Program-made: the position numbers and the translations under genes | Assembly (NCBI GenBank): GCA_041661965.1 | Contig: JBAZTH010000001.1 | Coordinates: 226,710-290,709 of the forward strand | From: Candidatus Margulisiibacteriota bacterium | GTDB taxonomy: Bacteria; Margulisbacteria; WOR-1; O2-12-FULL-45-9; XYB2-FULL-48-7 | Direction of reading: 5' to 3' | DNA length: 64,000 nucleotides | In this document: one piece after another, positions 45,795 through 63,799 of the stretch | Layout: the number at the start of each line of letters is the position of its first letter | Position numbering within the stretch: the stretch's first letter is position 1 | Notes under the pieces: generated by a model | The model's database searches: none | What the model was told of the DNA's origin: nothing | What the model saw: only the letters and a program-made list of their open reading frames with translations

Positions 45795-46931
45795 ATGGCA
45801 AAGTTAGCGATATTAATTATTCTTATACTGATTGGAGGGACCGCGCAGGGGGCAAGCTCCAGCGCGAATTATAGGTTGACCGCCGAAGTATTTGATTCCG
45901 GCGGATCCGTGGCAGGATCGTCATCATACGCTTTGCGGGGGAAAATTCGTGAAAGGGCGCTGCCCGTCAATATTGGGACTTCTTTTGCATTTAACGGAGG
46001 TTTTTTAAGGAGCGTTTATTTTTCCGCGCCGACCCCCCCCGCGCTGGCGCCGATCGTAATCTCAATTGCCCCGTCCAGTGGACTAAACAGCGGTCCGGTC
46101 AATATAACCGGCCTGGTCGGCGCCAATTTCCGATCGGGAGCGGCGGTTAAATTATCAAAGAGCGGGGAGTCCGACATAAATGCCGTTAATGTCGTAGTCG
46201 TGAATTCCGGGCAGATCACCTGCTCGTTTGATATTGCCGGCGCCGCCGCCGGCTTATGGAACGTATCCGTGATAAATCCTGACGGCGGATCAGGCTCGCT
46301 CCCTTCGGCGTTCACGATCGGTTTCCCCGCGCCGACCGTTGCTTCCATAACCCCTGCCCGCGGGACCAATGACGGGGTCGTTGAGATCATCGATCTGGCC
46401 GGCGGGAACTTCCGTTCAGGGGCGACGGTCAGCTTGTCGAAAGCGGGTCAAAGCGCGATCGCGGGTGAAAATGTCGTCGTTATTTCTTCCGCGAAGATAA
46501 ACTGCCGGTTCAATCTTGCGGGAAAGGAGATCGGTATTTGGGACCTCTCCGTTACCAACGACGACGGTCAATTTGCCTCATTGCCTCTCGGGTTTAAAGT
46601 GGAAGCCGCGTCGATCGGCGTGGTCGGCACGGTCGTCAGTACCTCCAATCCTTTCAATCCCGCCGCCGGCCCGACCACTTTGAAGTATACTTTAACTAAA
46701 GACGCGGATATTACTTTGTATATTTACAATATCAGGGGCGAGCGGGTTTGGCAGCGGTTTTTTTCAGCCGGCACGGCTGGCGGCCAGGTCGGCGTCAACG
46801 AGATCAACTGGGACGGACTGACCGACTTTAAGAGCCTGGTCAGTTTCGGTGTTTACATTCTGGACGTGACTACGAAGGAGGATGGCAAGATCAAGGGGTT
46901 GAGCCGGACGAAAATTGCCATAGTTAAATGA
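45795..46931 (+). CDS. Secreted IPT/TIG-repeat protein with C-terminal FlgD-Ig-like domain
   Basis: Signal peptide. Two IPT/TIG-like repeats (ISIAPSSG...GANF, ITPARGTNDG...GGNF). C-terminus (ITLYIYNIRGERV...WDGL...GVYILDV) matches the FlgD Ig-like fold seen in sorting domains. Confidence 0.5.
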   Translation: MAKLAILIILILIGGTAQGASSSANYRLTAEVFDSGGSVAGSSSYALRGKIRERALPVNIGTSFAFNGGFLRSVYFSAPTPPALAPIVISIAPSSGLNSGPVNITGLVGANFRSGAAVKLSKSGESDINAVNVVVVNSGQITCSFDIAGAAAGLWNVSVINPDGGSGSLPSAFTIGFPAPTVASITPARGTNDGVVEIIDLAGGNFRSGATVSLSKAGQSAIAGENVVVISSAKINCRFNLAGKEIGIWDLSVTNDDGQFASLPLGFKVEAASIGVVGTVVSTSNPFNPAAGPTTLKYTLTKDADITLYIYNIRGERVWQRFFSAGTAGGQVGVNEINWDGLTDFKSLVSFGVYILDVTTKEDGKIKGLSRTKIAIVK

Positions 46932-47905
46932 AAAAAACAATTGTTTTATTGGCCATCTTATTTGTCGGCGGTCAATTTTCCCAGGCCGCGGTGATCGGCA
47001 CCACGGACGATGCCTTGACCATCGGCGGCGGAGCCAGACCGATCGGGATGGGCCGCGCTTTTACCGCGATCGTTGACGATGCCGATGCTCCTTTCATCAA
47101 TCCGGCCGGTTTGGCCGGTATCAAAGGGCCGCAGGCGATGTCGATGTACACTAACTTATTGGGGGAGGTTTATTATCAAGAGTTCAGCGGCGCGGTCCCG
47201 ACGCCGAACGGCACTGTGGGGCTCGGTTATATTACGACCGGCGTGAACAATATTCCGACGACGCCGATCCCGACTGATTATTACGATTCGCTTTTTCTGG
47301 TTTCTTACTCGGTTCCCATCGCCAGGTTCTTTGATTACGGCAAAAATGTTTTTATCGGACTGAATTATAAAATATTCAACCGGGGATATACCGGCGGGAT
47401 CGGCCAGTTCGCGACCGGGACCAGCGCCGATGCCGGACTGCTTGTGATCGTCAATCCCAATCTTTCCTTGGGGCTGTGCCGGCAGAATATTTTGCCGGTT
47501 TCGATGGGCGGGGTGCTCCGTTTGGACGGCGGCGCCGAAGAGGCCCTGGCCGGAATAACCAAAGCGGGCGTCGCGATCAAACCAATCCCCCAGCCGAAGC
47601 TGACAGTGGCGGTGGATGTCGATCTGCCGGCCCAAAGCGCCAGGCCTTTAACCTCGCATCTTGGCCTGGAATGGAAAGAGAATAATTATCTGATGCTTCG
47701 GGCCGGGATCGATCAAAGCGTCGATCCGGGGACCGCGACCCAGACGAGCTGGAACCCATCCTTCGGCACTTCGTTGACCGTCGGAAATTTCCGTGTTGAC
47801 TATGCCTATCACCAATACTATAATGACCCCGGCTTGGCGACAACCTACGTATCGATGTCATATACCGGCGAACCATGGTTCGCCCTTAAGGGGAGGGCCG
47901 AATAA
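46928..47905 (+). CDS. Outer-membrane beta-barrel protein, PorV/FadL-like
   Basis: Signal peptide, then GARPIGMGRAFTAIVDDADAPFINPAGLAG, the hallmark N-terminal motif of PorV-like barrels. C-terminal aromatic-rich region. Confidence 0.4.
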   Translation: MKKTIVLLAILFVGGQFSQAAVIGTTDDALTIGGGARPIGMGRAFTAIVDDADAPFINPAGLAGIKGPQAMSMYTNLLGEVYYQEFSGAVPTPNGTVGLGYITTGVNNIPTTPIPTDYYDSLFLVSYSVPIARFFDYGKNVFIGLNYKIFNRGYTGGIGQFATGTSADAGLLVIVNPNLSLGLCRQNILPVSMGGVLRLDGGAEEALAGITKAGVAIKPIPQPKLTVAVDVDLPAQSARPLTSHLGLEWKENNYLMLRAGIDQSVDPGTATQTSWNPSFGTSLTVGNFRVDYAYHQYYNDPGLATTYVSMSYTGEPWFALKGRAE

Positions 47906-49441
47906 TTGAGGTGTAACCGGTCGATTTTTATTGCGCTTATTTTTTGCCTGCTTATTTTTGGGGTCAGCGCCCAAGTTTCAACGTCGGTCGACCAAAAAGT
48001 TTATCTCCCGGGCGATTTTGTCCATGTGATTGTCGACGCGCCGGTCGATACGACCCAGATTTCAGCCGTTATGCCCGATGGGACCATCGTCAATCTGATC
48101 CAGGGACGGCGGGCCAATCTTTGGCGCGGCATTTGGCAGGTCCCGGTCGATTTCGGGAAGGGGACTTACCGGGCAAAATTAAGCGCCGTCGATGTCAGGG
48201 GGAATATTTTTGACGGCGAAACCAATCCCTTCGCCATCGGAGAATTAGCGGTAATTGCCATCACCAGAAGAGTGACCCCGGAGATCGTTGAAAGACCGCC
48301 GCTGCGTGAAAAGATCGAGGTCAAAACCCAGCCGGCCGCCAAACAGCCCGGCGTGGAAGAGATCGTCAGTCGAATATTGAAGGTTATCCCGATTGTCTCC
48401 GCCGAGCCGGCCCCCTCGCTGGAAAAAGAACAAAAAAAACAATTGATCGCAAAGAACCTGGGAACAGGCCGAGAATTGTTCGATCAGGGAAAATATCTTG
48501 AAGCCTCGGCGTATTTTAAGATCGTTCTTTATCTTGATCCCAAAAACGGCGAAGCGAACTTATATTTATTGCAAACAAAAGAATTCATGAAAACGCAGCA
48601 AACCGGCGCCGCCAGATTTTATATTTTGCTGGCTGTTATCGTTTCGATCGGCGGCGCGCTGATCGCTGCTATTGTTTACTATTTCGGGCGCATGTTGTGG
48701 TGCCGTTTTCCCCGTTGGGCCGCCAAGCCGGCCGCGCCGGCCGCGGTTTCGGATCAAGAAACGATCCCTCTTTCGTTCGGCAAGCTCGGCTGGACAAAAA
48801 ATCCGTTTACGCCCGGCGCTTCCAGTCAAATGTTTAATGAAAACAATGCCCTGGCCAGGCCGGGGTTGATTGGGTTTATCAAGGCTCGAATTGAAGAAGC
48901 CGGAGGAAAAGGGCTTACTCCTTTTACCGATTCGGCGTTGGATAAGATATTTGAGCTCTCCAAAGGAAGGCCGAAAGAAGCGTTGAAGATTTGCGAATGG
49001 ACGGTTGACCTGGCGATCCGGCGGAATAGCGGGCAGGTCACGGCCGAATCGGTCAAAGAATATGAAAAGATCGGCTTGAAAAGGATCTTGATCGCCGATG
49101 ACGATGAGATAGTGCGGATCAGCCTTGACGCGATTTTGAGATCGGGCGGCGGTTATGAGACCGACTTTGCCGTTGACGGCGAAGAAGCCGTAAAAAAGAT
49201 AAAAAGCAGCCTTTACGGACTGGTTTTGCTGGATATCGACATGCCGAAAATGAACGGCTATGAAGTCTTGGAGCAGATCAGGCCAATATTGCCGACCTTG
49301 CCGGTCATTTTTGTTACGGGCAAAGGGACCCCGGCCCGAACGCTGGAAAGCCTTACAAAACAAAACCTGACCGGCTATATTGAAAAGCCTTTTACCCCGG
49401 AAAAAATACTCGATATTATTGCCAGGAATTTAAAAACCTAA
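47906..49441 (+). CDS. Single-pass membrane protein: periplasmic domain with TPR-like segment, cytoplasmic GspA/ExeA-like helical module, C-terminal receiver domain
   Basis: Signal peptide, TM helix at about residues 240-262, REC domain with DDDE...D...K signature. The REC domain is ~55% identical by eye to the stand-alone regulator at 52479-52847. Confidence 0.55.
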   Translation: MRCNRSIFIALIFCLLIFGVSAQVSTSVDQKVYLPGDFVHVIVDAPVDTTQISAVMPDGTIVNLIQGRRANLWRGIWQVPVDFGKGTYRAKLSAVDVRGNIFDGETNPFAIGELAVIAITRRVTPEIVERPPLREKIEVKTQPAAKQPGVEEIVSRILKVIPIVSAEPAPSLEKEQKKQLIAKNLGTGRELFDQGKYLEASAYFKIVLYLDPKNGEANLYLLQTKEFMKTQQTGAARFYILLAVIVSIGGALIAAIVYYFGRMLWCRFPRWAAKPAAPAAVSDQETIPLSFGKLGWTKNPFTPGASSQMFNENNALARPGLIGFIKARIEEAGGKGLTPFTDSALDKIFELSKGRPKEALKICEWTVDLAIRRNSGQVTAESVKEYEKIGLKRILIADDDEIVRISLDAILRSGGGYETDFAVDGEEAVKKIKSSLYGLVLLDIDMPKMNGYEVLEQIRPILPTLPVIFVTGKGTPARTLESLTKQNLTGYIEKPFTPEKILDIIARNLKT

Positions 49442-49508
49442 AAGTGTTTTTTCAGCCTTTGCCGGTTTCGTTGATTTGTCGCCGCGGACGAATCAAGGGG
49501 AGGACGAA

Positions 49509-49943
49509 ATGAGAAAAAAAATTATTATTTTATTGGTTTTGGCGATTACCGGCCAGGCTTCCTGGGCGATACATACCGCGGTCCTGGGCGGGGTGCGCGG
49601 CGGCGCGGCCTTTGGCCTGCAGCTGGAAGAAAATTTAACGAGGAACTTAAAATACCGCCTGGGGCTTGAGGCGACTACCGGCAATAATCCGCTGATCTTT
49701 TTTGGCGGCGGTAAAATCGGCCTGACCGAGATCGACCGTATGCCGCTTTCTCTAAGTTTGGGCTTGGTGGCCTATGCCGGGCAAAATTCCAGCCTGGGAG
49801 CGGCCGTTGCGCTTGTGCTGGATAGGGTTTTCTCGGTTGATCCTTTATTTATTGAAGTCGGGAGCGATGTTGGGGGGGAGGCCAGGTTGGTGGCTCAAAT
49901 CGGCTACCGGATCCTGACGCCGCGTACCGAGAGCCTTCATTAA
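49509..49943 (+). CDS. Small secreted beta-rich protein (putative small OMP); paralog of 29837..30253
   Basis: Start at [10 protein letters not shown]. Shares [16 protein letters not shown] and QIGYRIL blocks with its paralog. Lies directly upstream of copA. Confidence 0.4.
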
Positions 49944-49968
49944 CCACCAGACTATTTTAACAACAGGG

Positions 49969-52437
49969 GTGAAAGCAATGGAAAAGATCAGTTTCTCTAT
50001 CTCCGGGATGACGTGTGCGTCCTGCGTCAGCGCGATCGAGAACGGATTAAGAAGCTTTAAAGGGGTTGTTTCCGCGAATGTTAACTACGCTTCCGAAAAA
50101 GCCTGGGTGGAATATGATCCGGCGGTAACGGACATCGCGGCGATTGAAAAAGTTATTGCGGCGACCGGTTACTCGGTTATAAAACCAAGCGCGGCGGCGG
50201 CGCCGGCGTCCGCAGGGAAAATCCTCCTGAAAGTGGTTGGGATGGACAATCCGCACTGTGTGGGAACGATTGGCGGGGCGGTGGGCAGTTTGCCGGGTAT
50301 CTTATCAAAAGATTTGCGGGTAAATGAAAAAGCCGTTATTCAGTATGACCCGGCCAAGGTTTCTGTCCAACAGATAAAAGCGGTCATTACGGAGGCCGGC
50401 TATATCCCGATCGAAGAGGCGGACGTTACGGAAGATGTCGAGAAGCAAGCGCGGGAAAAAGAGATCAGAAATGTTTGGACCCGCTTTCTCGGCTCCCTGA
50501 TCTTAAGCCTCCCCTTGTTTTACTACATGCTGATGGTTGCGGGCTTCCCAATGCCGGAATTCTTTATGAAGAACGGTCCCGCGATCGAACTTTTACTGAC
50601 CACCCCGATCATGTTTTTTGGCAGCCTATTTTTCACGCGGGGCATTCTCTCCCTGGTAAAAACCAGGACCGCCAATATGGATACGCTGGTGGCAATCGGC
50701 GTCGGAGCGGCCTATCTCTACAGCTTATATGTCACAGTCGCGATCTGGCTGGGGAATAGCGCTTTCGGCGTCGCCGACCTTTATTACGAAGTGGCCGGCA
50801 TACTGATCACCTTTATTCTGTTGGGCAAATACCTTGAAGCAGTGGCCAAAGGGAGAACTTCCGAAGCGATCAAAAAGTTGATCGGTTTGCAGGCCAAGAC
50901 CGCCCTGGTAATCAGGGCCGGAAAAGAGGTCGAGATCAGGATCGAAGAGGTCCAGGTCGGCGACATAATTGTGGTCAAGCCAGGTGGGAAGATCCCTGTT
51001 GACGGAACGGTGACCGACGGCCATTCGAGTGTCGATGAGTCGATGGTGACGGGAGAAAGCCTCCCGGTCGAAAAAAAGGCCGGCGATAAAGTTGTCGGGG
51101 CGACGATCAACAAAACCGGCTCCTTCAAGTTCAAGGCCGAGAAGATCGGGAAAGACACTTTCCTGGCCCAGGTAATAAAATTTGTCGAAGAAGCACAGGG
51201 GAGCAAGGCTCCGATCGAAGAGCTGGCCGACCGAATTTCCGCTTATTTTGTCCCGACGGTTGTTTTGATCGGCGCGGCTTCTTTTATTGTTTGGCTTTTG
51301 GCGGGGTTGGGGTTTGCCTTTGCCTTGACTACCTTTATTACCGTTCTGATAATCGCCTGTCCCTGCGCTCTTGGCCTGGCCACCCCGACGGCTGTCATGG
51401 TCGCTACCGGTCTGGGTGCGGAGCACGGCATCCTGATAAAAAATGCGGCCGCTCTGCAGAAAGCGGGTGGGTTAAAATGCGTCGTTTTTGACAAAACGGG
51501 AACCTTAACTAAGGGTGAGCCGGAAGTGACGGACACGGTGCTTGCCGGCGGGGGGACCGAAAAGGAGATACTTTTTTACGCCGGTGTTGCTGAAAAGAAG
51601 TCGGAACATCCGTTGGCGGAAGCGATCCTGAAAAAAGCAAAAGAAAAGGGGGTCGAACTCCCCGATCCGCAAAAATTCAGTTCAATCTCCGGCAAAGGGG
51701 TTGAGATAACGCTTAATAACGAGATCATTTTACTCGGCAATCGCAAGCTTTTGACCGATAAGAATATCGCGGTCGCCGACCTTGAGCCTAAAATACAGGA
51801 ACTGGAATCCCAAGGGAAAACAGTAATGATCGTCGCTAAAAACAATTCGGTCGTCGGCCTGATCGCTGTCGCGGATACCCTGAAGGAGCATTCAAAGGCG
51901 GCGGTCAAAGAATTGCGTCGGAGCGGCATTGAGGTCGTGATGATGACCGGCGACAATAAAAGAACGGGTGAAGCGATCGCCAGGCAGGTGGGTATCGATA
52001 GGGTTTTGGCCGAGGTCCTGCCTCAAGATAAAGCGGAGAATATAAAAAAATTGCAGGCCGAAGGCAAGAAGGTGGCAATGGTCGGCGACGGCATTAATGA
52101 CGCTCCCGCGCTCGCGCAGGCCGATATTGGGATCGCTCTTGGATCGGGGACTGATGTCGCCATCGAAACGGGGGAGATCGTGCTGGTGAAAGAAGACCTG
52201 CGCGATGTGGTCATGGCGATTGACTTAAGCGCCTATTCAATGAAAAAGATCAGGCAGAACCTTTTCTGGGCGTTCATTTATAACGTGCTGGGCTTACCCA
52301 TCGCGGCCGGGATCTTGTATCCTTTTACCGGTTTTCTTTTGAATCCGATAATCGCCGGCGCGGCCATGGCCTTCAGCTCGGTTTCAGTGGTGACAAACTC
52401 GCTTTTGATGCGGCGGTTTAAACCGAGGATCAATTAA
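49969..52437 (+). CDS. copA: Copper-translocating P1B-type ATPase with two N-terminal HMA domains
   Basis: GMTCASC in HMA1, degenerate HMA2 (GMDNPHC), CPC transmembrane motif, DKTGT phosphorylation site, GDGINDAP hinge. Confidence 0.9.
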
Positions 52438-52478: not shown

Positions 52479-52847
52479 TTACCCCTTTTTTCTGGTTGCT
52501 TTAATGACCACATCCAGCACCTCGTTCGGAGTAAAAGGCTTTTCGATAAAACCGCTCAACCCGTTTTTGGCGATCGACGCGACGACCTTCTTAACGTCGG
52601 CTTTGCCGGTAATAAAGATTACCGGCAGGTCGGGATGGATCACTCTGGCTTGGGCCAGCACGTCGTAGCCGCTGATCTTGGGCATCTCGAGATCGAGCAG
52701 GACGGCGTCGTAAAAGGCGGTTTTAATTTTATTGACGGCTTCTTCCCCGTCATAAGCGAAATCGGCCTCGAAACCACCGGCTTTTTTCAGGATTTCCTCA
52801 AGCGATGTCCTCACGATCTCCTCGTCGTCGGCAATTAATATTTTCAT
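52479..52847 (-). CDS. Stand-alone response regulator receiver protein
   Basis: MKILIADDEE...D...K REC signature with no output domain. GAGGTGG SD. Start placed at 52847. Confidence 0.8.
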   Translation of the reverse strand: MKILIADDEEIVRTSLEEILKKAGGFEADFAYDGEEAVNKIKTAFYDAVLLDLEMPKISGYDVLAQARVIHPDLPVIFITGKADVKKVVASIAKNGLSGFIEKPFTPNEVLDVVIKATRKKG

Positions 52848-52884
52848 AAGCCACCTCTTTATCCAATATTTTATATGTTTATTG

Positions 52885-53553
52885 CTATTGAGGCAAGCCC
52901 TGCCTGCCGGCAGGCAGGGAGAAATAGAATCGGGCGCCTTCGACGCCGATCCGGCCGCCCTGTGCCCCCAGGGCAAGTTTGCAAAAATAGAGGCCCAGGC
53001 CGGCGCTGGTTTTTAATTTTAATTCCGGATGTTCGGCCCGAAAGTCCTTGTCAAATACTTTTGACGCGTAGGCCTGCGGGATGCCGTCGCCGGCGGTCGT
53101 TATTTCGAACAGCGCGCCGTCCTTTTCTTTTTTAATGTTAAACGATACCTGTCCTCCGCGATCGACTTGCTTGACGGCGTTTAGCAGCAGGTCCTCTATT
53201 GCCATCAAGGTGAGCTCTTTGTCGGCCCTCACGGTCAGATTGTTATCGATAGCGACGGCAATTGTCTTGTCCTCTTTTCCCGCCAGTTGCCGGATCCAGA
53301 CCAGTTCTTTCTCGAATTCCCGGGCCGGGAATGAAGTTTTGTTAATGATAAGCTCGCCCTGCTCCGCGTTGTTAATAGAGCTTAGTTCCATCAGGAGCAG
53401 GGCGAGCTTTCTTGCGCTGAAATCGATATTGATCAGATATTTTTGCTGTTCCTCGCTGATTGGCCCGAGCGTGCCGTCCAGGAACAGTCCGATCGAGCCG
53501 GTGATGCCGGAGAGAGGATTTTTAAGGTCGTGCAGGATCAGATCGTCAAGCAT
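52885..53553 (-). CDS. Cytoplasmic histidine kinase (HisKA plus HATPase_c only)
   Basis: H-box HDLKNPLSGI, then N, G1 and G2 boxes. No sensor domain. Paralog of 58080-58907. Confidence 0.8.
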   Translation of the reverse strand: MLDDLILHDLKNPLSGITGSIGLFLDGTLGPISEEQQKYLINIDFSARKLALLLMELSSINNAEQGELIINKTSFPAREFEKELVWIRQLAGKEDKTIAVAIDNNLTVRADKELTLMAIEDLLLNAVKQVDRGGQVSFNIKKEKDGALFEITTAGDGIPQAYASKVFDKDFRAEHPELKLKTSAGLGLYFCKLALGAQGGRIGVEGARFYFSLPAGRQGLPQ

Positions 53554-53923
53554 TTTTTTTCTCTAGGGCGGCCTTGATCTTGGCCATCATGACGGTAGGC
53601 TCGAACGGCTTCAGGATATAATCGGCGGCGCCGGCCGCTTTGATCTTGGCCAGGGTCTGGGGCAGGGTGCTGGCGGTGAGAATGATCACCGGAATGAGGG
53701 CGGTTCCCTCCGAACTTTTCAATTCCTTGATGACCTGGTAGCCGTCTTTTTTTGGCATCCAGATGTCAAGGATGATCAGGTCGGGATGTCCGGCGCGGGC
53801 TTTCTGCAGGCCCTCTTCGCCGTCGTAGGCCGACTCCACCTCGTAGCCGCCGGCTTTGGCCAGCCGGAAGGCGAGCATTTCGACAAATTCTGTTTCGTCG
53901 TCAACGAGCAGTATTTTAGCCAT
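53546..53923 (-). CDS. Stand-alone response regulator receiver protein
   Basis: MAKILLVDDE REC signature. Start placed at 53923. Confidence 0.8.
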   Translation of the reverse strand: MAKILLVDDETEFVEMLAFRLAKAGGYEVESAYDGEEGLQKARAGHPDLIILDIWMPKKDGYQVIKELKSSEGTALIPVIILTASTLPQTLAKIKAAGAADYILKPFEPTVMMAKIKAALEKKNA

Positions 53924-53936
53924 TTTGCCTCTCCTT

Positions 53937-56734
53937 TTAAGCGGGATTTTTCGGGAGCGTGAAAGTGAATTTTGACCCGACGTTCTCCTGCGATTCGACC
54001 TGGATCCGCCCGCCATGGAGCTCGATCAGCGACTTGACGATCGCCAGTCCCAGGCCGTCCCTTTCTCCCCGCCGCCCGCGACCCGGCCGAATTGCGTGAA
54101 TTTTTCAAATAATTTGGGCAGATTGGCAGCGGCAATGCCCCGGCCGGTATCGGCGACGCTACATCCGACCTCCTTGTCGTTTTCCTCGCAGGATATTTCG
54201 ATCCGGCCTTTGTCCGTGAATTTCAACGCGTTGCCGATCAGGTTGGTCAAGACTTCGGTGATCTCGTCGCGGTCGGCGTTCAAGATGACCGGAGCGGCGG
54301 GCAGCCGTTCGATCAGTTCCAGCCCTTTCTTCTCCGCCTGCGGACGGAAAGCCGCTAAGGTCTCCCTCATCAGTTGTGCAATATCAAGCGGCTCCTTTTT
54401 GGCTTCCATCCGGCCCGATTCCAGGCGGGAAATATCGAGCAGATCGTTGACGATACGGGCCAGGCGGTCAATGCTCCGAAGGGTCGTCGATAGAAATCTG
54501 GTTTGCCCTTCATTGATCGGCCCATGAATTCCCTCCAGCACTTGCGCCACTCCTTCGTGGATGATCGCCATCGGGGTGCGTAGTTCGTGTGAAACGGTAT
54601 TGACGAAATCGTCTCTGATGTTGACCAGCCGCTTGAAATCGGTGATGTCGACAACGGCGCCGATGCAGCGGACGGCCTTGCCCTGTTTATCAGACTGCAG
54701 TTCGGCTTTCTCCCGGACCCATTTGACCCGGCCATCGACAATGATCCGGTGTTCTATGTCATATTGCTTGCTGACCAGCGCGGCTTGCCAGGCACTGATT
54801 ACGGCGGCCCTGTCGTCAGGATGAACAAAACCGACGAATTTATCGTAACTTACCGGCGCGCCGGCCGGAACGTTAAAAATCTTATAAGTTTCATCGGTCC
54901 AGGTCAGAATGTCGTTTGTGATATCGAAGTCCCAGCTCCCGACCAGGGCCAGTTCCTGCGATTTTTGAAGGCGGTAGCTCTCGATTGCCAGTTTTTCTTC
55001 AGCCTGTTTGCGCTGGGTTATATCGTCGTAAACGGCGACGACCTCGCCGGTCGGCAATTTATAGATATAATTTTCCCGCCAGCCGCTGATCCGCTGATCT
55101 TGATAAAGACCGATCGGGAAATGTTCCGGCTGTCCCGTCCGCCAGACCCGCAGCAGGATATCGAACAAACCGAATGACTTGACTCCCGGGAAGACTTCCA
55201 GCACGCCCCGGCCGACCACCGCTTGCCTGTTAACTTTTTCGATCTGCTCTGCCGCCCGGTTAATGTCCGAAATGATAAAATCTTCGCTGCCGTTTTGTCG
55301 GTAGAGATAAATGACGACGCCGCTGCTCATATTGTCAAAAAGCGACTGGAATTTTACGGCGCTGTCTTTAACGATGCGCTCCAAGGCTTTTTTATAAGTG
55401 ATATCGTTGACCGTTATAATGACGCCCTGGGGTTTTTCAGTGGCGTTTTTGGTAAGGGCCGCGTTGATCGAACCGACAAATTGACTGCCGTCCCGGCGCA
55501 GCAGCGAGTATTCGAGTTCCTTGATCAGGCCGGTCTCCACCGTTTGCTGAAAACTCTTGCGCGCGGCGTTCCGTTGCTCCGGCGTGACCAACTCGAAAAT
55601 GTTTCGGCCGATCATCTCTTCAAGATTTTTTATTCCGTTCATTTTAAGCGCTTCAGCGGATGCGTAGGTGATCTTGCCTTCGAGATCGGCCGCGACAACA
55701 GCGTCGGGGGAAGCGCTGACCAGCCGTTCGAAATTTTCCTTACTTTCTATCAATTCTATCTCGCCCTGGCGCCTGATGATCAAATAAAACCCGAAGCCGA
55801 GCAGTCCCAAGCTTAACAGCCCGATCGCGGCGGCGCGCAGCCCGATCCAAAGCATGGGCGAATAAATTTCCCGGGCGTCGACTTTTGAAATAATGAACCA
55901 GCTTGTGCCGGGAATAGGACGGCCGACCGCCAGGACCGGCACGCCCCGGTAATCGATACCGGTCAGCAGGCGGCTGACGCCTCTGACGGCCATGGCAGCG
56001 GGCAGATATTTCGTGCCGACCGGGAAATGAAGATTGAGAGCGGCGTCCTTTTTGTGGCGAAGTTCGTTCAAAAACACGACCTCGCCGCTTTGTTGCCTGA
56101 CGAGCAGGGTTTCGGCGGAATCGCTCGGCACCGGCCAGATCTGGATCAGGGGAAAGAGGAAAAGCTCGGGATCGATGCGCAGGATCAACACCCCGGCTGC
56201 GTCCCCGTCGTTCATGATCGGCACGCCAATATCCAGCTTGATCCTGCCGTTAGCGCCCCGATGAAAGTCGCAGAGCGTCGATTGTTTTGACCGCAATGTA
56301 TCCAAAATCAATTTTTGTTCATCAACGATATTGATCGGACTATTTTTGTTCTCCGACAGCAGGACAAGGCCGGCCCGGTTGACCAGGCACAGGTTCTCGT
56401 ATTTATGGTGTTTCTTCAATATCCTCATCCAGGTCAAGACTTCCTGCTTTAATTCAGCTGAGCGGCCGCCCTCGAGCCACAACAAAAACGGTTTCGTGAC
56501 TAAGGGAATTTCATTAATGAACGCGGCGTCTTCCATTTGTTTCTGATGCCAATTCTCGATCTGATCGACTTTCAGGTTGGTTATGGCGGTCAGGTTATTG
56601 CGGGCCAATATCTTTAATTGGTCGCGCTGGTTATTAAAATAAGTAAGTCCGATCAGGCAAACTGCCAGCAGGGTAAGCACGACAAAAATGAAAAACCAAA
56701 GGCCGCCGGCGATCCCGGACTTTGACCGCGTCAT
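53937..56734 (-). pseudogene. Multi-PAS sensor histidine kinase with a 1-nt frameshift in the G2 box
   Basis: N-terminal TM plus periplasmic sensor region, second TM, three PAS-like repeats, HisKA (VSHELRTPMA), then N/G1/F boxes. The track ORF ends at 54026 as ...[16 protein letters not shown]. Shifting one nt near 54051-54061 (ACGGCC where ACGGGCC is expected) restores [41 protein letters not shown] with a stop at 53937. Confidence 0.7.
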
Positions 56735-58083
56735 TGGTTTATTTTCCCTCCCCGGCGCTCCAGTTCGATTAGGAGCGAATCGATCTCTTTTTCCTGATCG
56801 ATCATTTTAAGTTCCCGGCCGATCGCCGCCTCTTTGAAGAGTTCCAGTTCTCCGAGCTTTTTCTTCAGATCGGCTTCCGTTTGCCGCTGGGCGGAAATAT
56901 CGGTAATGACGCCGAGGATGGCGCGGTCATTCTCGTAATCGATCAGTTTTGTCGAGATGATAGCGGCGAACTTTTCGCCGTTTTTCTTGACCAGCTCGCA
57001 TTCATAAGGTTCGACGTCTTCGCCCTGGAGATGCTTTTTGAGCGCCGCTTCGAACACGGACAGCGAAGTCGGGGCGGTTAGCGAACGGAAATCGAAATCC
57101 GGCGAAAGGAGCTCTCCCGGAGAATAGCCGGTGACCTCCGAACAGCATTGATTGGCGTAAACGATCTTGCCCCGATAGTTGATAAAGATCATGTTCGGCG
57201 ACTGTTCGGAGAGGGTCCGGAACCTGGCCTCGGACTTTTGTCGGTCCTGGTGGAACCTGGTTTCCGATTCAATGGCCAAAGCCTGGGTCCGGTCAAGCTC
57301 GGAACCGATCAGCCGGGAAATATAAGTTACGCCGGCGGCCAGCACGGCTATGATCAATAAGGCCAGAATAAATGAATTGAGCGCGAAATTGATCGTCCCG
57401 AAAGGGAGACGCGTATAAAGGTAACCTTGCAGAATGACGGTGAAAAAAAGGATCGGCGCGAACCAGCGCAGGACGAGAGGCCGCGCGCCGGTGCCGGCCA
57501 GATAGCTTAGGGGGAAATCGGCCGGACCGATCGCCAGGATCGCGGCTGATGCGAGACAGATCAAAGCCAGCGCGGTGTTAAGGGCCATCGGAATAGAGGC
57601 CCCTCCGTAAAAGAAGGGGAGGCCGTACAGGTAACCGGTCAGGACGGCGGCGTTGATCAGGAAGCCCGAAACAAACAGCACCCCTTCGGCCCGGCGATTT
57701 TTTCTTTTCAGGCCGAACAAGAAAAGCCCGAGGCCGAGCAGGATGAAATTTAGTTCGGTCAGCGGCGCCAGCCGGCCGACGGGAGCGGCGCCCAGCATTT
57801 CCGGACTGGACACCAGAAACCGTTCCAGGTCGAATAGCCGGTTCAGCGCCAAAAAAAGCAGGACCGCGGTCGAGGCTGATATTTTGACGGCCGCCCCGAT
57901 CTTGGTCCGCTCGAATAGCAAAGCCGCGGAAAAAATGATAAGTATGACCGCTGTGGACGGTGCCATCGGGATGTAGGCGGAATCAAAGCGCGCGAGTATC
58001 TGAAAGCCGGAGAGCCAGCCGAAGAGCGCCAGAACGGCCAGGGCCATTGCCGCCAGAGAAAGCGGCGCCACCAATCTGTTCAA
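56731..58083 (-). CDS. Membrane sensor protein: ~8 TM helices plus cytoplasmic PAS domain and coiled coil, no kinase domain
   Basis: Hydrophobic N-terminal half, PAS after residue ~270, C-terminal coiled coil. Overlaps flanking genes as in an operon. Confidence 0.55.
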   Translation of the reverse strand: MNRLVAPLSLAAMALAVLALFGWLSGFQILARFDSAYIPMAPSTAVILIIFSAALLFERTKIGAAVKISASTAVLLFLALNRLFDLERFLVSSPEMLGAAPVGRLAPLTELNFILLGLGLFLFGLKRKNRRAEGVLFVSGFLINAAVLTGYLYGLPFFYGGASIPMALNTALALICLASAAILAIGPADFPLSYLAGTGARPLVLRWFAPILFFTVILQGYLYTRLPFGTINFALNSFILALLIIAVLAAGVTYISRLIGSELDRTQALAIESETRFHQDRQKSEARFRTLSEQSPNMIFINYRGKIVYANQCCSEVTGYSPGELLSPDFDFRSLTAPTSLSVFEAALKKHLQGEDVEPYECELVKKNGEKFAAIISTKLIDYENDRAILGVITDISAQRQTEADLKKKLGELELFKEAAIGRELKMIDQEKEIDSLLIELERRGGKINQ

Positions 58084-58907
58084 GTGTTTTCTCCTTTGGT
58101 CGGCAGCGTGAAGTAAAATTTCGATCCCTTGCCGACCGCACTCTCGACTCCAATTTTTCCCCCGTGGGCCTCGACCGCCATTTTGCAGAAATAGAGCCCG
58201 AGTCCGGTATCGATTTTGGTCTTTAAATTTTGGGTTTCAACTTTGAAAAAGCGGTTAAAGAGCTTGTTCAGATATTCTTGGGGGATGCCTTCGCCGGTAT
58301 CGGAGGCTTCAAACAAAATTTCGTTGTGTAATGTGTCATGTGTTATGCGTAACGCGATCCGGCCGCCGGCGGGGGTGTGTTTTACGGCATTTGAAACAAG
58401 GTTTTCGATCACCCGGACCAGTAGCCTCCGGTCGGCGGAGATAGCCAATCCTTTATCAATCTGCAAAGTGAACGACTTTTTTCCCTGATCGGCCAGCAGT
58501 TCCAGCCAGGCGAGCTCTTGGGCAAGCTCATCAAGCTTGAATGAAGACCGATTCAAGGTCATTTTGTCCTCTTCCATCTTCCGGGTTTCCAGCAGATCCA
58601 TGATCAGGTTAAGCAGCTGTTTAGATCCGGTCCGTGATAGCTCCAGGGATTTCTTTTGGTCGCCGGTCAGCGGGCCGAGCAGCCCGGCCAGCATCAGCTC
58701 GGTCGAAGAAACAATGCCGGTCAGCGGATTCTTCAGGTCGTGGACGATCAGGTTGGTCAGATCGTCGCGCAGCTTTTCCAGGTTGACTATCCGCTCGCGG
58801 TTTTTTTCGATCTGGGCCATGGTTTGGGAGAGGAGCGATTCTTTGGTGCGGGCGAGGTGTTTAAGCTGAAAGTTCTCTAAATTACGTTCGATCAGCTCTT
58901 TATCCAT
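58080..58907 (-). CDS. Cytoplasmic histidine kinase with N-terminal coiled coil
   Basis: H-box HDLKNPLTGI plus N, G1 and G2 boxes. Paralog of 52885-53553. Confidence 0.8.
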   Translation of the reverse strand: MDKELIERNLENFQLKHLARTKESLLSQTMAQIEKNRERIVNLEKLRDDLTNLIVHDLKNPLTGIVSSTELMLAGLLGPLTGDQKKSLELSRTGSKQLLNLIMDLLETRKMEEDKMTLNRSSFKLDELAQELAWLELLADQGKKSFTLQIDKGLAISADRRLLVRVIENLVSNAVKHTPAGGRIALRITHDTLHNEILFEASDTGEGIPQEYLNKLFNRFFKVETQNLKTKIDTGLGLYFCKMAVEAHGGKIGVESAVGKGSKFYFTLPTKGENT

Positions 58908-58908
58908 T

Positions 58909-59637
58909 TTACAATAGCTTTAGGTATGTCCCGCATTCGAGTCCTTTCAGGAAATCGATCGCGGGCTTAACCTGCTCTTTTTTGATGATCGAGCCGTGCT
59001 GGGAGGCGATCATCTCGATATCGTATTGTTCTATTTTTTCCAGCACCAGCTTCATGATCTCGCGGGAAGGCATGTAGGGCTTATGGAACAGGCTCATCTG
59101 GTCATGATAGTTGGCTTTCGCGAACAGGTCCCAATCGTCGGAAAATGCGCCGAAGAGGTCGCCGGAAAAAAATATTTTTGACTTAGTGTCGTAGGTGGCG
59201 AAAGCTCCGGGCGTATGCAGGTAGGGGGTGGGCTGAAAGACCAGTTCCCGGCCGCTTTTCAATTTGAGCCGATTGTTGTTTTTTTCAAAGAAATAAAAAG
59301 GTGAGCGCACCCCGTAATGCAAAATGAGAAACGACACCCGCTCAAAGGTGGCGATCTTCAGCTCCGGATTATTGATCAGGTCTTCAAACACGGGCAGGGA
59401 ACCGGCAAGATCGGGGTCCTGGTGGCTGACGATGATGGTCGAGATCTTTTTCGGATCGATCAGTGAAATGACTTTGCGCGCGACGATCGGGAAATGGGGA
59501 GCGGAGCCGGGGTCGATCAGGACCGCCTCATCGCCGTCAACGATCAAATATGGATTGCAATGAAAATTGGCGACCTGGTCGTAAAAGCCGACCCAGTAGA
59601 TGCCTTCCGCGATTTCGATCGCTTCATCGTAATTCAC
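58909..59637 (-). CDS. Metallo-beta-lactamase-fold protein resembling the diiron domain of flavodiiron / oxygen-binding diiron (ODP) proteins
   Basis: IYWVG..D....FH N-terminus, SHQDPDLAGS (HxHxDH-like replaced by HxD...) and C-terminal His/Asp ligands. No flavodoxin domain. Confidence 0.5.
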   Translation of the reverse strand: MNYDEAIEIAEGIYWVGFYDQVANFHCNPYLIVDGDEAVLIDPGSAPHFPIVARKVISLIDPKKISTIIVSHQDPDLAGSLPVFEDLINNPELKIATFERVSFLILHYGVRSPFYFFEKNNNRLKLKSGRELVFQPTPYLHTPGAFATYDTKSKIFFSGDLFGAFSDDWDLFAKANYHDQMSLFHKPYMPSREIMKLVLEKIEQYDIEMIASQHGSIIKKEQVKPAIDFLKGLECGTYLKLL

Positions 59638-59696
59638 TATGCGGAAATTATAACGTATAAAATTCGCGGATTCAACAAAATATTTCTGGACAAGTA

Positions 59697-59722
59697 ATCA
59701 GCGCGAGCCTATAATTTTGCAT
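59697..59722 (+). promoter_or_regulatory. Sigma70-like promoter TGGACA-17-TATAAT for the PAS kinase gene
   Basis: TGGACAagtaatcagcgcgagccTATAAT, 10 nt upstream of the ATG at 59731. Confidence 0.4.
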
Positions 59723-59730
59723 AGAATATC

Positions 59731-61509
59731 ATGGGACCAGGCGTTTATATCGTTATAATATCTTTGGCGCTCGGCATTTTATCGATCCCCATCGACTTGC
59801 TCTTCCATGCCGTCTTTTTGCATGAAGCCCCGTCGCTAGCCGCCCTTACCGAGCCGGAAAATATTTTCCACTGGTCCATGCTGCTCTTCTCGTTCGTCGT
59901 TTTCGGGCTGGTGATGGCGTCGATCTCAAGGCGCCGTGAAGCGGCGGCACAAGAGCACCGGCGGCTGATCGACGAAATGACCAAGCTCAAGCTGGGGGTC
60001 GAGCGCTCATACGAGGCGATCTTTATTACGGATACCGACGGGAAAATAAATTATGTCAATCCCGGATTTGAAAAATTGTACGGCTTTTCCCGCGCTGAAG
60101 CGATCGGCCAAACGCCCAGGCTGATCAAGTCCGGGACGCTTTCGCCCGACGTTTACAATGATTTTTGGAAAACGCTGTTAAGTAAAAAGGTCATAAGCGG
60201 TGAAATTGTCAACAAAACAAAAGCGGGAAAGCTGCTCAATATTGACGGCACGGCGCTCTCAATCCTGAACGATCGGGGCGAGATCATCGGATTTATGGGC
60301 ATTCAGCATGATATTACCGAACATAAGCAGCTGGATGAAGCCCTGCGCCGGTCCAAGGAAGACTGCGAAAAAGAAGTTATCGCGCGGACTGCCGAACTGG
60401 AACAGCTGCGGCGGCGGTACGAACTGGTCTTGAATTCCGCGGCCGAAGGGATCTTTGGCCTGGATCTCAATGGCAATCACACTTTTGTCAATCCGGCGGG
60501 GGCAAAACTGCTCGGCTACGAAGTGACGGAGCTGATCGGCCGGCCCAGCCATTCAACCTGGCATTACAAGCGGCTCGACGGCCGCCCGTATCCCAAAGAA
60601 GAATGCCCGATCTACGCTGCTTTCATGGAGGGGAAGGTACACCATGGCTCCGATGAAGTCTTCTGGAAAAAAGACGGCGCCAGCTTCCCGGTCGAATATA
60701 TGAGCGTGCCGATCCTGGAGTCGGGCAAGATTGTCGGCGCGGTCGTGACTTTCAGCGATATTACCGAACGCAAGCAGGCGGAAGAGGAAAAGATAAAAGA
60801 CGTGGAGCTGCACGAACGCGACCGGATGAAGACGGAGTTCCTCTCGATGGTCTCTCACGAGATGCGGACACCGATCACGCCGATCAACGGCTACCTACAA
60901 CTGCTATTGTCCGGCAAAATTGGTCCGTTAACGCCCGAACAAAAACAGACGATGCTGCTGATGCAGAGACAGTCAAAACATTTGTTAATCCTGATCGACA
61001 GCATTATCGATGTTTCACGGATCGAAACCGGCCGGACGCTGGTGCTTTCGAAAACGCCGGTGTTCCTGGACGATTTGTTGAAGCGGGTGATCGAGGCCAT
61101 GGGCGACCAGTTCGAGGAAAAAGGGATCGAGCTTAAGGCAGAGCTATCCGCGCACCTGCCGATCCTGGCCGATGAGGCCAAACTGGAGCGGGTGATCACG
61201 AATATACTGGGCAACGCGCTCAAATTTGTCCCCCGCGGCGGCTCGGTCGCGGTCGGCGCCCGGGTCGAAGCTGGGGCCGCCCGGGTCTCGTTCGCCGACA
61301 ACGGCATCGGGATCGATCGGGAAAACCTCGAGAAAATATTTGAAAAGTTCTATCAGGTCGACAGCTCCAACACCCGGGCGGCCGGCGGGATCGGCATGGG
61401 GCTGACGATCGCCAGGGAGATCGTCGAAGCGCACGGCGGCAAGATTTGGGCCGAATCGGACGGTCTGGGCAAGGGTGCCGCCTTGATCTTCACGCTACCG
61501 GAGGAATAA
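59731..61509 (+). CDS. PAS/PAC sensor histidine kinase (2 TM, 2 PAS, HisKA, HATPase_c)
   Basis: Two PAS repeats, H-box VSHEMRTPIT, then N, G1 and G2 boxes. Confidence 0.85.
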   Translation: MGPGVYIVIISLALGILSIPIDLLFHAVFLHEAPSLAALTEPENIFHWSMLLFSFVVFGLVMASISRRREAAAQEHRRLIDEMTKLKLGVERSYEAIFITDTDGKINYVNPGFEKLYGFSRAEAIGQTPRLIKSGTLSPDVYNDFWKTLLSKKVISGEIVNKTKAGKLLNIDGTALSILNDRGEIIGFMGIQHDITEHKQLDEALRRSKEDCEKEVIARTAELEQLRRRYELVLNSAAEGIFGLDLNGNHTFVNPAGAKLLGYEVTELIGRPSHSTWHYKRLDGRPYPKEECPIYAAFMEGKVHHGSDEVFWKKDGASFPVEYMSVPILESGKIVGAVVTFSDITERKQAEEEKIKDVELHERDRMKTEFLSMVSHEMRTPITPINGYLQLLLSGKIGPLTPEQKQTMLLMQRQSKHLLILIDSIIDVSRIETGRTLVLSKTPVFLDDLLKRVIEAMGDQFEEKGIELKAELSAHLPILADEAKLERVITNILGNALKFVPRGGSVAVGARVEAGAARVSFADNGIGIDRENLEKIFEKFYQVDSSNTRAAGGIGMGLTIAREIVEAHGGKIWAESDGLGKGAALIFTLPEE

Positions 61510-62341: not shown

Positions 62342-63799
62342 ATGCCAGGGAATGTTGAATACTTAACGTCTAACGAAATTAACGCGCTATTGTCCGCGAT
62401 CGATGATACTCGCGATCTGGCGATTGTCCTTCTCTTTTTGAATACCGGGATATTTCTCAACGAGCTGGTTAGTTTAAAAACCGATTCAATTAATTGGGAA
62501 AAGAAGATACTCGCGGTTGCCGGTAATAGGGGGCGAGAGATTCAATTAAACGATCAACTCTTTGAGGCTTTGGCCAAATGGTCCAAAGTTAGAGTGAATA
62601 CTCAAATCACCGCGTTGTTTACGACCACCAAAGGAGAGGTCAACGCTCTCTCTGCCCGAACGGTCGATCACCTTATCCGCAAATATGCCGCCCAGGCCGG
62701 GATCGGCAAAAAGGTTAATGCCAAGATGCTCCGGCATACTTTCGCGGCCAGGCTCTGCCGGGAAGAGGTCTCGATCGACCGGGCGGCCGCCATTCTTGGG
62801 ATTACCGACGCTGAATCGATCAGCCGCTATATTAAAGTGGCAAAAGAGCCGCCGAAAGTCAACCTCGTTCCAGAAGAGGTCGATACTCGCCCAATATTAG
62901 TTAAATTCCTAACCAAACTCTTTCCAACCAAGCCGAAGATTGCCAAGCCGCTTACCACTATCAAAGGAGCGATTCTCCCTAGCCCAACCGAAGTTGCTTT
63001 TGGGCGGGAGGGGGTAATTGAGGATATCAAGGGACATCTCAAGAAAGGGCAGTCGGTTCTTTTGACCGGCCAGGTGGGGATTGGGAAAACGCATCTCCTT
63101 AAAAATATTGCCGGATCATTTGGCGCCACCACTTTTTACTTTTCCTCTCCTTCGCCGATGCGTGATCTGCTCAAACAATTGCATGAAAAGCTAAATTGTC
63201 CGGGCGATAAGCTAAACGGCCGCTCTTCTTCAAAGGAGATCGTTGGTCAGATTACCTCTGCTCTCGAAGCCCCAAAAACCATTCTGATCATCGATAACCT
63301 GGATAGTTTGAAAGCGTCGGATATCGAGACTTTTCTTACGCTTCTCGAGAAGTTTACTATCCTGGGGGCGGTTGAAGAGCCGAAACCGAAGCTCAAGTCG
63401 GTTTGGTGGAAGTTCAAGCGGATCGACCTGAAACCATTGAGCGAAGAGGCGGCCAAAGAGTTGATCCGCTACTTGACCCAGAATCTTTCCATCACCGATT
63501 ACGAGATGCTCGAGACCAGGATTCTTTCTTTGTCCAACCATCTGCCGGTCGCTATTGTCGATATGATCCACCAGGTCAGCCACCGGCCGGTGGTCAATAA
63601 AGAGGTTATTCGCGATGTTTATCATGAGGCGGGAGTTTATTTTCGCGACTGGACCCCCGTCATCATCATTCTTTGGGGGATGGTGATAGCCTTCCGGTTT
63701 GTGGCTCTTGGCATGCACAGCTTTGAAGGGTACATCTTGGCCGGCTTTGGTACCGCTCTGCTCGCGACGGTGCGGGTTTTTATGTTCAAGATGAAATAG
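62342..63799 (+). CDS. Fusion protein: tyrosine-recombinase-like catalytic domain with degenerate active site, plus AAA+/P-loop ATPase, plus C-terminal TM helices
   Basis: Residues 1-170 align to the integrase catalytic fold (LRHTFA box II, ISRYIKV Tyr box), but box I Arg is replaced (TGIFLNEL) and two His positions are substituted. Walker [12 protein letters not shown] and Walker B ILIIDNLD follow. Two C-terminal hydrophobic helices. Confidence 0.55.

Follow-up and report, generated by a model that had tools for sequence, protein, structure and literature searches.

A candidate two-module signalling island joining an ODP di-iron protein, histidine kinases and a short kinase-like protein in Candidatus Margulisiibacteriota

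A composite signalling island

The genome of a Candidatus Margulisiibacteriota bacterium contains, within a 64,000-nt stretch of contig JBAZTH010000001.1 (positions 226,710–290,709, referred to here as the window), a dense island of signalling genes at window positions 52479–61509. We read this island as a composite of two modules, with one being a sensor kinase unit around a protein of the oxygen-binding di-iron protein (ODP) family, and the other a His-Asp-His-Asp phosphorelay in which a short kinase-like protein, HK222, would serve as phosphotransferase, and we give this reading roughly an even chance (probability about 0.5). Gene and domain content, motif conservation, synteny and gene fusions were observed, and from these we infer binding, phosphotransfer, ligand and output. 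Both modules are conserved in Margulisiibacteriota and Saganbacteria, and the comparative data are better explained by branched multi-step phosphotransfer than by simple pairs of kinase and transcriptional regulator.

Genes were assigned from the open reading frame (ORF) listing and the translations, with Pfam and NCBIfam scans, and this upheld the eight signalling genes in 9 kb of a preliminary description of the sequence, including their coordinates:

52479–52847, minus strand: REC122, single-domain receiver of type A (Response_reg)
52885–53553, minus strand: HK222, short HisKA and HATPase_c core with H-box HDLKNPLSGI (Pfam)
53546–53923, minus strand: REC125, single-domain receiver of type B (Response_reg, E 2.5e-26)
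54026–56734, minus strand: HK902, kinase with transmembrane segment (TM), Cache-like domain, TM, three PAS domains, HisKA and truncated HATPase_c (Pfam)
56731–58083, minus strand: memPAS450, polytopic membrane domain, PAS domain and C-terminal coiled coil, lacking a transmitter (Pfam, hydrophobicity)
58080–58907, minus strand: HK275, sensor-less HisKA and HATPase_c kinase with H-box HDLKNPLTGI (Pfam)
58909–59637, minus strand: ODP, stand-alone di-iron protein of 242 aa with a GTG start, first gene of the minus-strand operon (PF19583)
59638–59730: divergent promoter region of ODP and HK592, with sigma-70-like matches (to the consensus only)
59731–61509, plus strand: HK592, TM-PAS-PAS-HisKA-HATPase kinase, divergent from ODP (Pfam)

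Seven of the eight genes are tightly packed on the minus strand, with 4–8-nt overlaps or short gaps. The top sigma-70-like sequences in the 13 kb scanned were at 59687–59715 on the plus strand (11/12) and 59675–59647 on the minus strand (10/12), both being matches to the consensus only. REC125 (125 aa) starts at MAKILLVDDE and REC122 (122 aa) at MKILIADDEE, and the 156- and 165-aa versions of these receiver ORFs were rejected, as their extra length represents upstream read-through. When all ORFs of the 64-kb window were scanned with hidden Markov models (HMMs), the only receiver domains (three) and kinase cores (four) were located in the island region, and none of the receivers was fused to a DNA-binding domain, in agreement with the earlier statement that no DNA-binding output is encoded here.

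The two sensor-less kinases had been described as paralogs, which is confirmed by the 41% identity of HK275 and HK222 over 221 aa, but they are not equivalent, as HK222 lacks both the 48-residue N-terminal helix of HK275 and the Asp of the G1 box. A recent DNA duplication of kinase-receiver units was ruled out, with only short DNA matches (63–74%) and proteins that are 36–57% identical; the island consists of two conserved modules and no long DNA repeat, and not of a duplicated unit as proposed previously.

HK222 as a candidate phosphotransferase

HK222 belongs to a family of 17 ortholog clusters of 217–227 aa, which all start 7 residues before the phospho-accepting His; this common length and start led us to reject HK222 as an N-terminally truncated pseudogene. 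The His is invariant and the H-box HDLKNPL is conserved throughout the family, while the G1 Asp is present in 2/17 orthologs and is otherwise replaced by Y, H, F, S, T, V or A, with the second Gly often varying as well. Mean pairwise identity of the G1 box is 0.44 in the HK222 family versus 0.81 in the HK275 family, and that of the dimerisation and histidine phosphotransfer (DHp) domain is 0.65 versus 0.61. Decay of G1 with retention of DHp argues, short of proof, for a loss of autokinase function. In a profile search of 1.8 billion representatives, the DxGxG motif was intact in 223 of 238 cores (94%) of longer related kinases, versus 2/17 HK222 orthologs. Other short stand-alone cores had an intact motif in 6/21 and a decayed motif in 15/21.

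With its His and H-box retained but the adenine-binding Asp of G1 gone, HK222 would be expected to hand phosphate on without phosphorylating itself. None of the island proteins has a Pfam match to a histidine-phosphotransfer family (Hpt etc.), and HK222 could be the only island protein able to fill the role of second histidine carrier (H2). The AlphaFold2 (AF2) model of HK222 (pLDDT 88.9) shows a canonical DHp and catalytic ATP-binding (CA) core, and a Foldseek search ranked HK853, RetS and DivL first, which reflects a generic kinase core and does not discriminate, with ChpT not being present in the top 50 matches. Placement of HK222 in the ChpT/Spo0B family is unsupported, with no Pfam or NCBIfam match beyond HisKA and HATPase_c pointing there; HK222 stands outside the ChpT, Spo0B and Hpt families, and would work like them without being a member.

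PMC3433190 describes ChpT as a kinase fold without ATP binding. ChpT and Spo0B share with HK222 a size of ~220 aa, a DHp-like hairpin with a kinase-like alpha/beta domain, and a place between two receivers, and the Spo0F to Spo0B to Spo0A relay also uses separate polypeptides, as in the window. Both are dimeric and lack autophosphorylation, as proposed for HK222. In contrast to ChpT and Spo0B, HK222 matches HisKA and HATPase_c and has an ATP-lid of normal length, and going by its sequence it is an independent and less advanced case of kinase decay.

A further likeness is found in Caulobacter, where MrrA donates phosphate to PhyK and LovK (Lori et al. 2018, PMC5964349); these two serve as phosphotransferases, and their ATP-binding residues are dispensable for this. 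That system likewise runs from kinases via a single-domain receiver to kinase-like phosphotransferases and terminal receivers, with inputs converging, an order which is here proposed from the genes. PhyK and LovK retain their ATP-site motifs and sensor domains, whereas HK222 consists of the core alone and its G1 box is decayed; furthermore, the terminal receiver of the MrrA system is PhyR, compared with free and membrane-anchored receivers here, and the phylum is unrelated.

The profile search also returned many proteins of ~1000–1260 aa with two HisKA/HATPase cores (P0248, P0272 and P0294, and also P0196 and P0218). In three of these (P0248, P0272 and P0294), Ser replaces the His of the first core, where DxGxG is intact, while the second core keeps the His and has degenerate G1 and N boxes, so that core decay looks complementary within one polypeptide.

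Conserved order of kinases and receivers

The receivers are of two types, which we compared across numbered fetched loci (labelled L002, L083 etc., with L002 being from Saganbacteria). Type A comprises REC122, the receivers following ODP and kinase in simple loci, and that of memREC511, a membrane protein encoded at 47906–49441, while type B comprises REC125 and its orthologs. REC125 retains the conserved active-site residues DD, D, T and K. Neither single-domain receiver has an output domain, as noted earlier, but one of them had also been called a near-copy of the memREC511 receiver, which does not hold, since REC122 is 57% identical to it and their best DNA match is 47 nt at 74%, without a long repeat. 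REC122 is 57–79% identical to the receivers following ODP and kinase in L003, L084 and L085, and the same range was found for the receivers following the short kinase in L083, L088, L089 and L091. Because type A is common to loci with the ODP-linked kinase and loci with the short kinase, it is likely to be cognate to both. In a comparison of DHp domains aimed at pairing kinases with partners, 23 positions are shared and conserved and 7 are family-specific.

Gene order supports a relay. Loci L083, L088 and L089 have the order sensor kinase, type-B receiver, short kinase, type-A receiver, convergent with an operon ending in the memREC511 ortholog. In L091 an HK902-type kinase is fused to the type-B receiver (1232 aa, with the receiver at the kinase C-terminus and 74% identical to REC125), followed by the short kinase, the type-A receiver and memREC. 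The short kinase adjoins the convergent memREC operon in 6/6 contexts (the window, L083, L088, L089, L090 and L091) and is preceded by the type-B receiver in 5/6, with the two genes overlapping by 8 nt in the window, L083 and L089, and by 11 nt in L088. The order of kinase, receiver, decayed kinase and receiver, together with the L091 fusion of the first kinase with the first receiver, agrees with a His-Asp-His-Asp relay in which HK222 would be the second carrier. The modules also occur apart, with ODP, kinase and receiver in L084, L085 and L003, and the relay without a nearby ODP in L088 and L089, which suggests that the window and L083 are composites of the two.

HK902, the upstream kinase in the window, was previously described as a 900-aa multi-PAS kinase. 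Its domain content was confirmed (with the Cache-like domain at 37 bits, below the Pfam threshold of 45 bits), but it is not intact, as a 1-nt deletion in a short G run at about 54055–54057 removes the G2 box. The deletion site reads GGGACGGCCTGG, whereas the ortholog frame requires GGG-ACN-GGC-CTG; the ORF now stops at 54026, while the restored frame would end at 53937, and the G2 box and C-terminus (...KNPA and stop codon) run on in the other frame. The window DNA has 100% identical counterparts in a European Nucleotide Archive (ENA) metagenome contig (over 12.9 kb) and in a Logan run assembly (over 8.7 kb), and three or more assemblies of this population, which may share reads, contain the 902-aa product. 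As the product is identical in the ENA and Logan assemblies (with possibly shared reads), we rejected an artefact of one assembler.

The frameshift, the degenerate ATP site of HK222 and the missing transmitter of memPAS450 could also be taken together as gene decay, with the island being partly non-functional. The presence of the frameshift in three assemblies is consistent with this, as is the separation of the island from its partner operon by copA and a 155-aa ORF (orf155). However, HK222 and memPAS450 are full-length in other genomes, the DHp domain of HK222 is no less conserved than in the HK275 family, and damage is seen in HK902 only, whose ortholog in L083 is intact (931 aa), which makes decay of the island improbable. 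With HK902 frameshifted, input may now be limited to ODP-HK275 and perhaps HK592, and HK275 or HK592 could substitute as first kinase.

An ODP family member encoded beside a kinase

The first gene of the minus-strand operon was described as encoding a metallo-beta-lactamase (MBL)-fold protein resembling ODP, and closer alignment bears this out, including its metal ligands. It matches PF19583 with E 9e-64, with Lactamase_B being the only further Pfam match and no flavodoxin domain detected by Pfam. Among PDB sequences it is closest to the ODPs of Thermotoga maritima (6qrq, E 5e-34) and Treponema denticola (6qnm, E 8e-30), the best flavodiiron protein match being much weaker (E 1.5e-12). Residues H72, D74, D76, H141, D160, H185 and H214 are invariant in 29 ODP homologs, and six of these (H72, D74, D76, H141, D160 and H214) align to ligand positions of FprA (H, E, D, H, D and H), which we take to be H81/E83/D85/H148/D167/H228. 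The seventh FprA ligand (H86) is replaced by Leu, as it is in both solved ODPs. The top PDB matches of the AF2 model (pLDDT 93) in Foldseek were ODP chains, over the full length and with TM-scores of 0.81–0.87, at about 30% sequence identity. The protein is thus a true ODP family member with predicted intact metal ligands, and family membership alone would suggest that it senses O2 or redox state.

Apart from ODP, no non-haem di-iron sensor of oxygen/iron is known from bacterial signalling, and ODP itself was previously studied with chemoreceptors only. Compared with the solved structures (6qnm, 6r9n, 6qrq and 6qwo), the ODPs of Treponema denticola (TDE2498/TDE2496) and Thermotoga maritima have the same family, fold and, by alignment, ligand positions as the window ODP, and all are stand-alone proteins encoded beside a sensor-less signalling protein. 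The difference is in the partner, here a HisKA kinase rather than a methyl-accepting chemotaxis protein (MCP) feeding CheA, and in the absence of chemotaxis genes. As described in PMC7666581 and PMC6978683, ODP is an accessory sensor for a sensor-less chemoreceptor, and PMC7319448, where it summarises Muok et al. (2019), mentions recruitment of ODP into other signalling operons and fusions.

To place the window locus, we surveyed the 80 closest ODP loci from species-representative genomes, and counted as neighbours those genes on the same strand and downstream within 250 nt. Hosts included Nitrospinota, Nitrospirota, Desulfobacterota, anammox Planctomycetota, Campylobacterota, sulfur-oxidising symbionts, Zetaproteobacteria, Patescibacteria and Margulisbacteria. 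Sixty-eight of the 80 ODPs have a qualifying downstream neighbour, which carries HATPase_c in 29 cases (26 of these with HisKA too), a receiver in 17, GGDEF in 13 and EAL in 6, and no MCP signalling domain was among the families reported for these 68. A kinase downstream is the commonest arrangement in the surveyed ODP clade. At least five fusions of ODP with HisKA and HATPase were found (five verified, all in Campylobacterota), in which a coiled-coil linker joins the parts and the ODP part is 48–50% identical to the window ODP; ODP-REC and ODP-GGDEF-REC fusions are likewise present among the homologs.

In all six closest relatives (L002, L003, L083, L084, L085 and L086) ODP is followed by a kinase of 269–273 aa. 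The simplest operon is that of L084 (ODP, kinase, type-A receiver), whereas L003 and L085 have ODP, kinase, type-A receiver, type-B receiver and a MshE/PilB-type ATPase. Genes for rubrerythrin, rubredoxin and flavodiiron proteins are located near the ODP unit in L083, L085 and L086 (with desulfoferrodoxin also in L085), and a pyridine-nucleotide disulfide oxidoreductase gene (Pyr_redox_2) adjoins the unit in the same three loci, consistent with a role in the oxygen response. In L002, a C-terminal fragment of flagellar FlhA (L002:22-486, recognised by eye from the sequence) precedes ODP, and this together with the MshE/PilB-type ATPase of L003 and L085 hints at a link of the ODP module to motility or pili. 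No experimental study of an ODP-kinase pair was found in the searchable literature.

The preliminary description allowed for a chemotaxis-like pathway, as in the Treponema series of ODP, MCP, CheA and CheY. Characterised ODPs do serve chemotaxis, the receivers of the island are CheY-sized, and the FlhA fragment in L002 also points in this direction. The partner kinases are of the HisKA and not the CheA type, however, and there is no CheA, CheW or MCP among the scanned window genes and no MCP signalling domain among the families reported for the 68 neighbours, which makes this pathway very improbable.

In H-NOX/HnoK and NosP/NahK systems, a small soluble metalloprotein sensor is encoded beside a sensor-less kinase and regulates its autophosphorylation; these are haem sensors for NO. 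The window ODP differs in having an MBL fold and a predicted di-iron site in place of haem.

In 14 of the 80 loci (L004, L005, L007, L014, L017, L018, L021, L025, L027, L029, L038, L040, L054 and L077), ODP is followed by a conserved small protein of mostly about 90–105 aa (124 aa as called in L040; example at L004:5164-5454), with hosts including Nitrospinota, Nitrospirota and Bacillota. All 14 match each other by BLAST and share a motif of roughly Y-K/R-D-L-I/V-E...RE-x-G-I-x-G...G-C-K-I...L-x-L-P-x-I-L, and none is explained by the Pfam families reported, with the L004 protein having no hit at E 1e-3. They apparently represent an ODP partner family without a description so far, which is not present in the window.

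Possible co-sensors and the envelope operon

A gap of 1 nt lies between the ODP stop codon and HK275, whose orthologs (269–273 aa) share a conserved N-terminal region of ~50 residues, a helix of ~50 aa. The G1 motif DxGxG is intact in 9/9 members of the HK275 family, in the form D-x-G-E-G. Adjacency and the fusions with ODP point to HK275 as the probable ODP partner, with which ODP may be in contact.

The next gene, memPAS450, has 4-nt overlaps with both neighbours and encodes ~8–9 hydrophobic segments. The earlier view of a membrane-PAS protein without a transmitter was correct, with PAS_9 detected (E 2e-10) and no HisKA or HATPase match in Pfam. Its only close homolog follows ODP and kinase in L002, and over about 90% of its length memPAS450 is collinear with P0129 and P0132, which run on into HisKA and HATPase_c. 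It corresponds to the sensor half of a membrane kinase family, here a separate protein, and could be a co-sensor for HK275, which is the weakest part of the first module. The membrane domain, which has no Pfam match, contains the repeats YIPMAPSTA (residues ~38–46) and IPMALNTA (~163–171), also present in distant kinase-fused homologs, suggesting an internally duplicated, unnamed membrane sensor domain.

HK592 has two N-terminal hydrophobic segments, and its transmitter is 52% identical to that of the PilJ-domain kinase adjoining the ODP module in L085, with HK592 being a possible additional input to the island.

The receiver domain of memREC511 is encoded in a separate operon on the plus strand:

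44202–45788, plus strand: secreted Gly-rich fibre-like protein (Pfam Gly_rich_2)
45795–46931, plus strand: secreted TIG/Ig protein with sorting-domain-like C-terminus (Pfam TIG, FlgD_ig)
46928–47905, plus strand: PorV/PorQ-like outer-membrane protein (NCBIfam, sub-threshold)
47906–49441, plus strand: memREC511, membrane protein with external domain and type-A receiver, last gene of the operon (Response_reg at residues 394–505)

The operon with memREC is conserved in L083, L088, L089 and L091. A polytopic structure for memREC511 was rejected, as it has two hydrophobic segments only (residues 6–24, a signal anchor, and 239–257), which flank an external domain of ~215 aa and are followed by a cytoplasmic linker and the receiver. 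There was no significant family match for the N-terminal domain of either memREC511 or orf155. The Gly-rich protein resembles Bdellovibrio adhesive fibre proteins at its N-terminus (Bdello_MAT_N, E 4e-8, under the curated cut-off), while the PorV/PorQ-like protein matched PorV2 (E 1.7e-19, 69.9 bits with a cut-off of 325) and PorV_fam (E 1.5e-15, 57.6 bits with a cut-off of 90), and the sorting-domain match was to Por_Secre_tail (22.7 bits with a cut-off of 23). The two proteins thus resemble parts of type IX secretion-related surface systems (T9SS), at scores below those needed to assign membership. We infer that the pathway acts at the cell envelope and not through transcription, and that REC122 is a receiver free to diffuse. 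In L003 and L085, the pilus-type ATPase encoded after the receivers hints at a role in motility or attachment.

Between this operon and the island (49476–52437, plus strand) are copA, encoding a copper P-type ATPase with two HMA domains, and the 155-aa ORF with a signal peptide. Neither is at that position in L083, L088, L089 and L091, by appearance the result of a local insertion or rearrangement.

Proposed signal flow and its weighing

In the first module, ODP would bind O2 and/or Fe(II) at its di-iron site and signal its state to HK275, probably via the conserved N-terminal helix of the latter and in a manner akin to its control of a sensor-less chemoreceptor in Treponema, while memPAS450, whose translation is coupled to that of HK275, would contribute another input from the membrane; type-A receivers would then be phosphorylated by HK275. 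In the second, HK902 would sense through its periplasmic Cache-like domain and PAS domains and pass phosphate to REC125, from which it would be transferred to HK222 and on to REC122 and the receiver domain of memREC511. Both modules would thus converge on type-A receivers, namely the free REC122 and the membrane-anchored memREC511 in the operon of PorV-like, Ig and fibre proteins. This retains the relay of the preliminary description in a modified form, with no Hpt protein, a decayed kinase as carrier and two modules, and drops its chemotaxis-like aspect, with no Che or MCP genes found among the window genes scanned.

Several observations weigh against this signal flow. The N-box Asn is kept in 15/17 members of the HK222 family and the G2 GxG in most, the ATP-lid of HK222 has a normal length within a canonical kinase fold, and the two members with the G1 Asp retain the full DxGxG; going by sequence, HK222 may still bind nucleotide (ATP). 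The frameshift in HK902 leaves the relay without a working first kinase in the window genome, and the grounds for an ODP-HK275 contact are solely adjacency and fusions. The rubrerythrin, flavodiiron protein, rubredoxin and Pyr_redox_2 genes flanking the unit in relatives were not found in the window, and both the PorV-like and the sorting-domain matches lie under curated thresholds. The type-B receivers show no recognisable signature of an intermediate receiver. PMC9981736 presents the FATGUY motif as separating terminal from intermediate receivers, and in the comparison type A has F-[ILV]-T-G without the Tyr and type B has L-T-A, with an aromatic switch residue in both. Finally, L090 has only the short kinase and memREC, without an upstream kinase or type-B receiver, a layout which fits a phosphatase or a distantly fed role equally.

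The retained ATP-site boxes bear on the possibility of parallel conventional pairs, in which HK902 acts on REC125, HK222 on REC122, and HK275 on REC122 or on a receiver elsewhere, with HK222 being an active kinase and REC125 an allosteric regulator. Each adjacency of kinase and receiver is classical, and HK222 has kept the His, N-box Asn, G2 box and canonical fold, with DxGxG in two family members. Single-domain receivers that control kinases allosterically are known, and this explanation was weighed and rejected for PhyK in PMC5964349. In contrast, the adenine-binding Asp is lost in 15/17 orthologs while related kinases keep DxGxG in 94%, HK222 has neither a sensor nor an N-terminal helix, and the fusion of kinase and first receiver directly before the short kinase in L091 is a typical relay layout; we consider parallel pairs rather unlikely.

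The L090 layout also bears on a role of HK222 as dedicated phosphatase or phosphate sink, which would drain REC122 and memREC511 after their phosphorylation by HK275 or other kinases. The residues next to the His (HDLKN), invariant in the HK222 family, form the phosphatase motif of HisKA kinases, the ATP site is decayed, and in L090 the short kinase has only memREC beside it. This would leave unexplained the overlapping type-B receiver gene and the upstream fusion of kinase and type-B receiver; moreover, the two roles are compatible, with LovK doing both, and as the sole function of HK222 a phosphatase is unlikely.

A wider reading, which we regard as tentative and doubtful at present, is that Margulisbacteria and Saganbacteria possess a signalling architecture not described before, in which a family of ~220-aa kinases without ATP binding act as phosphotransferases between two single-domain receivers; ODP and Cache/PAS inputs would there be combined to govern how a PorV-linked surface fibre is assembled or displayed.

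Other genes around the island

A Ser/Thr protein kinase gene (34749–35771, minus strand) and a gene for the ferrous iron transporter FeoB (37941–39683, plus strand) are located 13–18 kb upstream, with no evident link to the island. On the other side (62342–63799, plus strand) is a gene for a 485-aa fusion of a XerA-like tyrosine recombinase domain (E 2e-31) with a P-loop AAA_22/STAND-like ATPase. The ENA contig of the same population stops at window position 61847, shortly before this recombinase-ATPase gene, which hints at the boundary of a variable or mobile region.

Conclusions

Margulisbacteria are an uncultured sister lineage of Cyanobacteria, found at oxic-anoxic boundaries. Each element of the island has a known counterpart, in ODP accessory sensing and in kinase-like phosphotransferases, and the locus is a compact, testable system of ODP, kinases and receivers, in which the pairing of ODP and kinase is widespread but unstudied. 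The HK222 family would represent a shift from kinase to phosphotransferase that is recognisable from sequence, while for PhyK and LovK this role was shown biochemically and their sequences give no hint of it. If the wider reading is true, bare cores starting at the H-box with a decayed G1 could be a widespread class of phosphotransferases, and the organism would have an oxygen-avoidance or attachment response without transcription, via a phosphorylated membrane-anchored receiver. If confirmed, the HK222 family may help to annotate relays in genomes without detectable Hpt proteins, and oxygen sensing would here be tied to an output at the cell surface rather than a transcriptional one.

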